DNA of 64,000 nucleotides from Escherichia coli. GTDB taxonomy: Bacteria > Pseudomonadota > Gammaproteobacteria > Enterobacterales > Enterobacteriaceae. Below are positions 12,001 through 15,000 of this stretch, in pieces (positions within the stretch are counted from its first letter, which is position 1; each line of letters starts with the position of its first letter). The position numbers are program-made. The DNA lies in assembly GCF_001677475.2 (NCBI RefSeq), contig NZ_CP015229.1; one strand, 5' to 3'.

Positions 12001-15000
12001 TCGAACGATACGGAATAACCCCAAACGATAGCATTACTACAATTCATGCGCTTCGAATTGCGCTGGATGGCATAGAGCGGAGCGACGCCATGCTTCATGG
12101 ACGTCAGCCATGCCATCAAATTACCGCCTCAATGGCAAAAGCTATTGCGCTTAAACTTGGTGCCGAACTGAATAACGAAGAAGCAGAGATTTTCGCGGAT
12201 GGGTATAACACCGCCATGCTTCATGCCGAAAACTTTCGGGAAAATAAGAATTCGTCAACCAATAATTTTCGGATAACCTCGGAAACGTCAACCAACTCTC
12301 CGGCAATCCCTGATGAGGTGTTGTCCGCAATCCTGAAGGTCGCCAGGCTTCGTGCAGATTTCGATGCTTCTGAAGGTGACAGGCGAGGTATCGGTGGTTG
12401 TCTGGATGAGGCCGAGCAAGAACTTATCGTTACCATTAACAAATACGCCAGTCAGATCGCAGTAGAAGCGATACAGGGGGCGCACCAATGAGCCGGCCCG
12501 ATGCATTTGCAGGCGTTGCTATAGCTATTGCTTTTCCAGTATATGTTATTTGTCGGTGGGGGTAAAAACGTTCGCCGGAATTCACACCAAGGGAGGGAAT
12601 ATGTCGGATGATATTTCACTGGTAATGGAAGGCGCTCTGGCTGTTATTGCTGTTGTGGGTGTTTACTGCCTGGTTGTGTTTTTGATGGATCGCCTGGGGA
12701 ACTGAATTCATTCCGTATGGGAATTCCCATATCGGGCAAAAACGGTTTGCTGTAAAGCGAGAGTTAAGTAGAATTGCTGCGGGTGCTTGAGGCTATCTGC
12801 CTCGGGCATGCCGCCGTAAGGCAGACAGAGAAAAGCCCCAGTTAACATTACGCGTCCTGCAAGACGCTTAACATTAATCTGAGGCCATATCTATGCGACA
12901 CATAGAGATTAGCCTCTTACGGACCGAAAGGTCAAGGAGAAGCAGGCTATGAAGCAGCAAAAGGCGATGTTACTCGCCCTGATCGTCATCTGTTTAACCG
13001 TCATAGTGACGGCACTGGTAACGAGGAAAGACCTCTGCGAGGTGCGAATCCGAACCGGCCAGACGGAGGTCGCTGTCTTCACAGCTTACGAACCTGAGGA
13101 GTAAGAGACCTGGCGGGGGAGAAATCCCTCGCCACCTCTGATGTGTCAGGCATCCTCAACGCACCCGCACTTAACCCGCTTCGGCGGGTTTTTTGTTGTG
13201 CAGCGTAGTTGATTAGCTTTTTGTGTACTCCTTTGGTTGTGGTTCTTGAGGGGCCGTTTGGAGTAAATAGAATCATATTGCTTAGTTAGCGCGCAGGGAG
13301 AAGAGGGATGGACCCCAAACAGGGGATAGCTAATTATCCGGAAGGATTCTGCTGATGAAAATCGAAGAATTGCGTGAAATTTTTAGTGAAAATGGCCTCT
13401 ATGCTGTGCGCGTTGAGAATGGGGAAGTTATCTACGCAACGTTAATTCCTGATGATCATGTAATTTTATCTATCGAGGCATTCATTGAATACCTGGAAAG
13501 GCTCGGTTTCAAGGTGGTTCGGGTATGAGTTATAATTCGTAAGCCAGCCTGAACAACTGGCAACCTACAGCGCCATTGGAGACAGCAATGGCGCATATAC
13601 AACTGGTCAAGCAAACATCTTCTGGTTTACTTCTCCCGGCAACGCCGGAGAGTTGCGATTTTCTGCATCAAATCAAAATAGGCGAGTGGATACACGCTGA
13701 TTTTAAGCGTGTGCGTAACTACGCATTCCACAGGCGTTTTTTCAAACTCCTGCAACTGGGATTCGATTACTGGACTCCGAACGGTGGGGCGATCACGCCT
13801 CGAGAGCGAGAACTGGTATCAGGCTTCGTTGAGTACCTGTGCGAATCAGTAGGTCGGGAACACACTCCTGCCCTGAGTGATGCCGCAGAGCAATACCTAA
13901 ATACCGTTGCGATACGCAGAACCCGGGATACGGCATTGCTTAAGTCATTTGACGCTTTCCGCGAATGGGTAACCATTCAGTCTGGATTTTACACCGAGCA
14001 TTTTTATCCGGACGGTAGCCGCGGGCGTCGGGCGAAATCCATCGCGTTTGCGAATATGGACGAAACCGAGTTTCAGCAGGTTTATAAATCTGTACTGAAT
14101 GTGCTGTGGAACTGGATCCTGTGCCGAAAATTCTCGTCTCCGGAGGACGTCGAAAACGTGGCCGCGCAGCTACTGGAGTTTGCGTAATGGTGGATTTACG
14201 TAAAGCGGCGCGGGGCCAGATGTGCCAGGTCAGAATCCCTGGTTACTGTAATCACAATCCTGAAACATCTGTACTGGCACATTACAGGCTGGCGGGGACG
14301 TGCGGAACGGCAATAAAGCCGCACGATACGCAGGCAGCGATTGCCTGTAGCTCATGCCACGATTTAATCGACGGACGGGTAAAAATCAGCGATTACACCA
14401 AAGACGAATTGCGCCTGATGCACGCGGAGGGCGTTTTCCGCACACAAGAAATCTGGAGGGAGAAAGGCATTCTATGATTTACCCAACAAACACCGGAAAA
14501 AGCGGAGAGCATCTTCGACTCAATACGTTGGAAAGCGTCTGGATACAGGGGAAACTGCGTATGTGGGGGCGCTGGTCGTACATTGGCGGCGGTAGGTCAG
14601 GGAATATGTTCAATCAGTTGCTGGCGTCAAAAAAGTTGACGAAAACAGCCATCAATGAAGCCCTGCTCAGAATGAAAAAAGCGGGAATAGAGAAACCTGA
14701 ACTGGAATCATTTTTGCGAGAAATTATCAATGGCAAGCAAAAGAGCTGGCTGGTGCATTGTACTGATGCCGAGGCGCTATGCATTGATCGGGTGATTAGT
14801 GAAGTGCTGGCAGATCATCCGGGGTTGATTTGTATCCTCCAGCAGCGGTATGAAGGACGGGGGATGACTAAGCGCAAAATGGCTGAATTGCTGAATGATG
14901 CACACCCAGAGTGGTGTTTTAGCACATGTGAAAAGCGAATTGCTAATTGGTTGGCTGTTGCTGAGTATGCGCTATACATTCCCATGCGAGAATCACTTGC

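Follow-up and report, generated by a model that had tools for sequence, protein, structure and literature searches.

Does the region at positions 12590–13200 of a 64,000-nucleotide (nt) stretch of Escherichia coli DNA (contig NZ_CP015229.1 of assembly GCF_001677475.2; the whole stretch is called the window below) hold a complete type I toxin-antitoxin system, and what are the small membrane peptides encoded just ahead of its toxin gene? The hok/sok family has been a textbook type I toxin-antitoxin system since the 1980s, and a first-pass annotation of the window had proposed a hok-type locus here, with a leader open reading frame (ORF), a terminator and an additional hydrophobic peptide upstream. 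All the elements that it named were located where it had placed them, and we are highly confident that the region is a complete hok/sok cassette of known kind. Its host element is a Rac-like lambdoid prophage, in whose early-right (nin-like) region the cassette is situated, after the replication genes and before the gene for the Q antiterminator.

The hok toxin gene and its mRNA

The toxin gene is found on the plus strand at 12949–13104 and encodes a HokD/HokW-type protein of 51 amino acids (aa), MKQQKAMLLALIVICLTVIVTALVTRKDLCEVRIRTGQTEVAVFTAYEPEE, which begins MKQQKAMLLALIVICLTVIVTALV. Its earlier assignment to the Hok/Gef family was borne out, as the protein matches the Pfam family HOK_GEF (PF01848) over model positions 1–42 of 42 (E = 1.1e-23); it also matches PHROG 251 (E = 7.7e-33), and the gene is labelled 'type I toxin-antitoxin system toxin HokD' (hokD) by PGAP in a locus of 98.8% identity. 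The protein is identical at 50 of its 51 residues to the commonest phage-borne sequence, which is that of HokD of E. coli K-12 (the sole change being I9L), and at 46 of 51 to HokW. A Shine-Dalgarno (SD) sequence, AAGGAG (12934–12939, plus strand), recognised from the sequence and the fold, stands 9 nt ahead of the hok ATG. On the minus strand, a 57-aa ORF antisense to hok (12909–13082) was without support and was rejected as a gene.

The leader of the hok mRNA was recognised by the Rfam model RF01794 ('sok'), which matched 12781–12951 over its full length (model positions 1–157) with 102.3 bits, compared to a gathering score of 59 (E = 4.4e-22). This match follows the sense strand of hok up to its AUG; it therefore identifies the leader of the hok mRNA, i.e., the target of Sok, and was rejected as the antisense gene itself. 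Rfam match, fold and conservation together delimit a putative full-length hok mRNA of ~417 nt (12781–13197, plus strand), which would start at GGGUGCUUGAGG and end in the T run of an intrinsic terminator. The minimum free energy (MFE) of this RNA is -175.6 kcal/mol (z = -7.07) and no shuffle was as good, which together with the Rfam score agrees with the structured hok-like leader proposed by the first-pass annotation.

In the MFE structure, a tac-like 5' element GGGUGCUUGAGG (12781–12792, plus strand) pairs with an fbi-like fold-back element CCUCAACGCACCC (13154–13166, plus strand), which is complementary to the 5' end of the mRNA, lies just ahead of the terminator and matches the hokW primer YO-350. 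Fold-back elements of this kind, which the first-pass annotation had proposed to seek by alignment to other hok loci, were thereby located. The SD region of hok is paired with a ucb-like box AGCCUCUU (12911–12918) in the full-length fold. The structure was examined in an alignment of 72 related loci and compared with slid partners and shuffles; 91.3% of the cells were paired, compared to about 40% in the slid controls, and 53 pairs were changed on both sides, compared to 15 in the shuffles. The tac-fbi helix (helix 1) was paired in 97.6% and nearly invariant, and the pairing between the ucb-like box and the hok SD (helices 7 and 8) was found in 96–97%. The terminator, AACCCGC-TTCG-GCGGGTT followed by TTTTTGTT (13173–13197, stem 13173–13190, plus strand), was identified by a terminator scan, as expected from the earlier claim that the toxin gene has its own terminator, and 6 of 7 pairs in its stem (helix 24) were changed on both sides across the loci.

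Upstream of the mRNA, a hok promoter is predicted from the sequence at 12747–12774 (plus strand), composed of a weak -35 TTGCTG (12747–12752), a 16-nt spacer and a -10 TAGAAT (12769–12774) that sits 7 nt upstream of the first base matched by the Rfam model (12781). The GTTAAGTAGAAT motif of this promoter recurs at related loci. The 461-bp cassette as a whole gave megablast matches of 90–99% identity in 4726 of 5426 complete E. coli genomes. The median number of places per genome was 2 and the maximum 10, and in 3948 genomes a match covered at least 80% of the cassette. The Rfam covariance score, the z-score of the fold and this recurrence exclude a chance pattern.

The antisense RNA and the leader ORF

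A Sok-like antisense RNA had been implied by the first-pass annotation, which could not delineate it. Based on the fold and on homology to sokW, we now place a putative Sok RNA of ~70 nt at about 12899–12827 on the minus strand, probably starting at 12899–12901. It is predicted to begin with a 5' tail of ~14 nt whose sequence complements that of the mok start codon, followed by a long hairpin (12886–12834) and a UUUUCUCU tail, and its predicted fold has an energy of -31.7 kcal/mol (z = -5.83). Five pairs of the hairpin (helix 5) show compensatory changes across loci, and the Northern probe YO-592 used for sokW covers the stretch that is homologous to the predicted RNA. The sok promoter, for which an alignment had likewise been proposed, has a candidate at 12906–12935 (minus strand), with a -35 TTGACC (12935–12930), an 18-nt spacer and a -10 TAATCT (12911–12906) that aligns with the -10 of sokW (TAACCT). 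Mutation of this sokW -10 with primers YO-421/422 abolished the antitoxin activity and unmasked the toxicity of HokW (Takada et al., 2021; PMC8621323), and the candidate -10 of the window is thus at a position where function was demonstrated in a relative.

The mok-like leader ORF was identified from the sequence at 12881–12952 (plus strand). An SD sequence GAGG (12881–12884) is located 8 nt upstream of an ATG at 12893, which opens 19 sense codons, MRHIEISLLRTERSRRSRL, closed by a TGA at 12950–12952. This TGA overlaps the hok ATG (12949–12951) as ATGA; the overlapping leader ORF described earlier is therefore present, yet as a short variant with a 4-nt overlap, whereas a classical mok of 70 codons overlaps hok over a long stretch.

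Variation within the cassette was highest at 12886–12910, which on its two strands holds the start and first codons of mok as well as the 5' tail of the putative Sok. In 63 loci, 25 alleles of this segment were observed, with a mean entropy of 0.66–0.78 bit compared to 0.02–0.2 bit in the hok coding region.

Comparison with named hok systems

The same cassette is known as hokW-sokW from Sakai prophage 5 (Sp5), a Stx2 phage of E. coli O157:H7 (Takada et al., 2021; PMC8621323), and its location there, early-right in a lambdoid prophage, is of the same kind. The ends of the window locus are identical to the published hokW primers YO-349 and YO-350, the two loci have the same leader hairpins and the Sok -10, a candidate in the window, at the same aligned position, and a homologue of the small ORF sORF1 described below is directly upstream of hokW-sokW too. 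The mok ATG of hokW is found at -57 relative to the hok ATG, in frame, and opens a 70-aa ORF, whereas that of the window is at -56 and its ORF ends after 19 codons on the hok AUG. The alleles further differ in the segment of the Sok 5' tail and mok start, in the Sok -35 and spacer (TTGCCT and 17 nt in sokW) and in the C-terminus of the toxin (TAYEPEE in the window, VDYESEK in HokW), and Sp5 lacks the small ORF sORF2 that is present in the window.

The closely similar toxin of K-12 is encoded by hokD (relF) of the Qin prophage, which is 98.1% identical in DNA to the window over 12935–13197, comprising the coding region, fbi and the terminator. As this match begins only at 12935, K-12 hokD is without promoter, tac, mok start and Sok target/terminator, whereas the window has all of them.

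Several features link the window locus to hok/sok (parB) of plasmid R1: the toxin measures ~50 aa, the leader ORF begins ~19 codons ahead of hok, an antisense RNA (in the window a predicted one) spans the leader start, and both loci have the tac/fbi fold-back, ucb/dcb-like boxes around AGCCUCUUAC and membership in the same Rfam and Pfam families. HokW and R1 Hok were reported to be only 44% identical (PMC8621323). The mok of R1 has 70 codons in the +1 frame and overlaps hok, in contrast to the 19 codons in the window; R1 hok/sok is plasmid-borne and acts in post-segregational killing, whereas the window locus belongs to a prophage; and the predicted Sok hairpin of the window carries a 16-nt insertion compared to the Rfam consensus. 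The locus is thus already known, as near-identical loci are annotated as hokD in E. coli and the relative hokW-sokW has been studied by experiment. A recent survey found hok to be enriched in prophages (bioRxiv 10.1101/2025.08.07.668861).

Proposed mechanism and role

Modelled on the paradigms of R1 hok/sok and Sp5 hokW-sokW, the cassette would be expressed from its own promoter as a stable hok mRNA of ~417 nt. In the full-length mRNA the 5' end (tac) would be paired with the 3' fbi and the SD of hok would be sequestered, and because of this pairing the RNA would be neither translated nor bound by Sok. Slow trimming of the 3' end would let the RNA refold and expose the translation start of the 19-codon mok-like leader ORF. 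The unstable Sok of ~70 nt, transcribed from a promoter inside the leader, would pair across the SD and start codon of mok, blocking its translation and thereby the coupled translation of hok, and the duplex would be marked for RNase III. Upon loss of Sok, mok would be translated, and termination at the UGA overlapping the hok AUG would open the hok SD; the Hok protein then made would be toxic, entering the inner membrane and collapsing it.

By analogy with hokW-sokW, the likely trigger would be induction of the prophage and the outcome earlier lysis with more phage released. hokW-sokW was shown to be a type I system that gave faster lysis and doubled phage release after mitomycin C (PMC8621323), and faster lysis with more phage release upon induction is the sole experimental result for a close prophage relative. 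Alternative roles may be post-segregational stabilisation of the prophage or abortive infection; prophage maintenance and phage exclusion, as named by the first-pass annotation, are generic suggestions.

Small membrane ORFs upstream of hok

The additional hydrophobic peptide of 34 aa that had been noted about 350 bp upstream, behind a strong ribosome-binding site, was confirmed and is here called sORF2. It is a single-helix membrane peptide, MSDDISLVMEGALAVIAVVGVYCLVVFLMDRLGN, encoded at 12601–12705 (plus strand) behind the SD sequence GGGAGGG (12591–12597), and its ATG is 348 nt upstream of that of hok. In the 98.8% identical locus it is annotated by PGAP as hypothetical protein WP_001278459.1. 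A query with the 51-aa TTG-extended ORF returned only unnamed E. coli proteins as relatives, PHROGs, NCBIfam and PADLOC contained no family for sORF2, and a literature search for WP_001278459 or the peptide sequence found nothing. The family is narrow, as a profile search of 1.84 billion cluster representatives retrieved only 21 clusters. A second allele, ~50% identical, has a GTG preceded by AGGAGG as its probable start and from there encodes 29 aa, MLVLKCALAIAAVMAIYCLAVVLMDRLSD; both alleles have the same stop and the same core, ALA-x2-AV-x3-YCL-x3-LMDRL. Within and between the alleles dN/dS is 0.28–0.33, with a dS of ~1.2 between them, and variable sites are concentrated at third codon positions. 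Judged by its sequence evolution, sORF2 is a real gene under purifying selection.

A second small ORF, sORF1, was identified by an ORF scan and its homologues at 12488–12565 (plus strand). It encodes 25 hydrophobic aa, MSRPDAFAGVAIAIAFPVYVICRWG, and its ATG overlaps the stop of an upstream 277-aa ORF as ATGA. Nothing meaningful was found for it in PHROGs, NCBIfam or PADLOC. Homologues of sORF1 are conserved upstream of hok (MNWPEAFAITGVAMAIAFLVYVICRWG; in Stx2 phage I, MTWPEAFANVGTVMAVVLVVYSICRWR); in Stx2 phage I, which is Sp5-like, the homologue directly precedes hokW, and the published insert of pBAD18-hokW-sokW begins at its start codon (primer YO-432). Within sORF1, the minus strand has a promoter-like site (12538–12566; TTTACC, 17 nt, TATACT), which is directed leftward into the end of the 277-aa ORF and probably resembles a promoter only by chance.

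Most likely, sORF1 and sORF2, which are outside the hok transcript, encode small inner-membrane proteins of an ordinary kind, which belong to the phage early operon, share a module boundary with the hok cassette and travel with it. It is doubtful, though still the best surviving alternative, that sORF2, possibly together with sORF1, works with Hok, either as a membrane-level modulator (a protein antitoxin, an enhancer or a timing factor) or as a regulatory upstream ORF whose translation on read-through early transcripts would control the folding of the hok leader during induction. The linkage between the genes was counted with a degenerate DNA pattern for sORF2, independent of hok, in 102 phage loci; the pattern misses the window allele, where Ala-12 is GCT and not GCG, and the counts therefore come from relatives of that allele. 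In 93 of the 102 loci hok was found at a fixed distance downstream, and a decayed hok in 2 more. From the hok side the association was much looser, with sORF2 at only 33 of 95 loci and sORF1 at 30 (both at 10), and this asymmetry would fit a peptide that works with Hok. The same can be said of the persistence of the linkage beyond the divergence of the two alleles, of its extension to a more divergent sORF2 member likewise directly ahead of a HOK_GEF gene, and of the 53 of 95 hok loci that are directly preceded by at least one of the two small ORFs. On the other hand, adjacency in mosaic lambdoid phages may merely reflect a shared module boundary, and most hok loci, including the functional hokW, are without sORF2. 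Moreover, sORF2 can persist without hok, since the remaining 7 of the 102 loci (L126, L130, L142, L146, L172, L188, and L201), all of one haplotype, keep a clade-B sORF2 with unrelated DNA at the position of hok, followed by a convergent ORF.

Frames of mok and integrity of the window copy

To place the short mok of the window, the position of the mok ATG relative to the hok ATG was surveyed in 85 unique phage hok loci (>90% identical). In 71 of these the mok ATG was found in the hok frame at -57, so that the ORF is a 70-aa Hok with an N-terminal extension, annotated as 'MokW'; in this majority form, translation from the mok ATG would yield an extended Hok, not a separate leader peptide. The window type, with the ATG at -56 and 19 codons ending on the hok AUG, was found in 10 loci, an R1-like frame (ATG at -58, 68 aa) in 3, and a single locus had no ATG at this position. 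Near-identical hok loci thus carry mok in three frames (L001, L003 and others, besides window 12893–12952), the differences arising from small indels just past the ATG and in a hairpin with a GAAA tetraloop.

Such indels raise the question of whether hok has decayed here to a non-functional remnant, as in several chromosomal copies of K-12, in which case the short mok would be a frameshift lesion uncoupling hok. Compared to the majority allele, the window has lost 2 nt directly behind the mok ATG and gained 1 nt in the GAAA hairpin, changes that together put mok outside both long frames; decayed copies are present in the sample (e.g., L131, L143, and L069), and K-12 hokD has itself lost everything upstream of 12935. 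In the window, however, the remaining elements are intact, namely the promoter motifs, tac, fbi, the SD sequences, the Hok ORF and the terminator. The 19-codon allele recurs in the 10 loci mentioned above with otherwise different flanks, and a mok stop placed exactly on the hok start (AUGA) is an arrangement favouring termination-reinitiation. A mutational scan of R1 hok/sok led to the conclusion that mok translation is needed up to the hok SD and is unnecessary beyond the hok start (PMC9841398); hence the 19-codon mok of the window should still function, assuming that it is coupled to hok as in R1. Overall, we consider decay improbable, more so than a joint action of sORF2 and Hok.

Several points nevertheless weigh against reading the region as a complete and working cassette. 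A number of chromosomal hok loci of K-12 are inactive, so that an intact-looking sequence is no proof of activity. A consensus promoter scan of the region flagged neither the hok nor the Sok promoter, the former being missed as its -35 has only 3 of 6 consensus matches; both are weak matches to the consensus, placed through position and homology, and the transcription starts and the expression of Sok from the window copy are accordingly proposed on the paradigms of R1 and hokW. The tac-fbi helix, being nearly invariant, displayed no compensatory changes among the 72 loci, and is thus conserved but without support from covariation. The MFE structure of a 3'-truncated hok mRNA contained a local 5' hairpin in place of the tac-ucb pairing of the R1 model, and the refolding step therefore rests on the literature. 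Finally, the suggested biological role is borrowed from a single study, made on a relative with 46 of 51 toxin residues in common.

Least probable of all, and by a long way unlikely, is a tandem toxin locus in which sORF2 would encode another type I membrane toxin, controlled by an antisense RNA of its own. The peptide is indeed small, combines a single hydrophobic helix with a strong SD, has been conserved by purifying selection and adjoins a known type I toxin. However, the consensus scan found no promoter-like site on the minus strand over 12601–12780, the region 12492–12780 is without a sequestering leader (z = -0.73, with 50 of 200 shuffles folding at least as well), no Rfam match covers sORF2, its peptide, unlike the majority of known type I toxins, is net acidic and has an acidic N-terminus, and it stands in sense orientation within the phage early operon, right after a translationally coupled ORF. 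A single complete hok/sok cassette preceded by small phage membrane proteins thus remains our preferred reading of the region.

Neighbouring genes

The prophage genes around the cassette share one orientation and comprise kilR, ydaS/ydaT, the P replication gene, DUF1367, DUF1364 and Q. A related strain has kilR, ydaE, ydaS/ydaT, P, hokD, DUF1367, DUF1364 and a Q-type DUF1133 gene, with order and orientation as in the window. Just past hok, a 57-aa ORF (13355–13528, plus strand) matches PHROG 340, a family of unknown function, over profile positions 13–67 of 85 and may therefore be N-terminally shortened; the gene at this position in the related strain is annotated as frameshifted. A promoter-like site is found upstream of this ORF at 13246–13273 (TTGAGG, 16 nt, TAGAAT).

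The Q antiterminator gene is located at 14354–15016, with two toxin genes directly downstream. The first (15404–16129, plus strand) encodes an ArtA-like, pertussis-like ADP-ribosyltransferase subunit (NF011803, E = 2e-76, below the equivalog cut-off) and the second (16140–16622, plus strand) a B subunit of a subtilase-family AB5 toxin (NF038397, 155 bits compared to a cut-off of 40). These two genes are prophage cargo at the site held by Stx in Stx phages. Elsewhere in the window, the small RNA MicC was found in full length at 45773–45893 (plus strand; Rfam RF00121, 125 bits).

Implications for prophage hok loci

As one more hok/sok locus, the cassette carries little weight, its allele being auto-annotated across most E. 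coli genomes. The three natural mok frames in near-identical loci support the view that mok has to be translated only as far as the hok start. The variable 12886–12910 segment could set the specificity of Sok where several hok/sok copies share a cell, as in genomes with up to 10 places. In addition, one or two uncharacterised small membrane ORFs stand ahead of more than half of the sampled prophage hok loci, and one such ORF was carried unnoticed on the published hokW-sokW test plasmid. We regard it as unlikely, though conceivable, that sORF1 and sORF2 form a third, protein-level component of the hok module, which might act on Hok insertion or lysis timing upon induction or on the folding of read-through early transcripts around the leader, and that in parallel the variable Sok tail may give each co-resident prophage its own antitoxin specificity.

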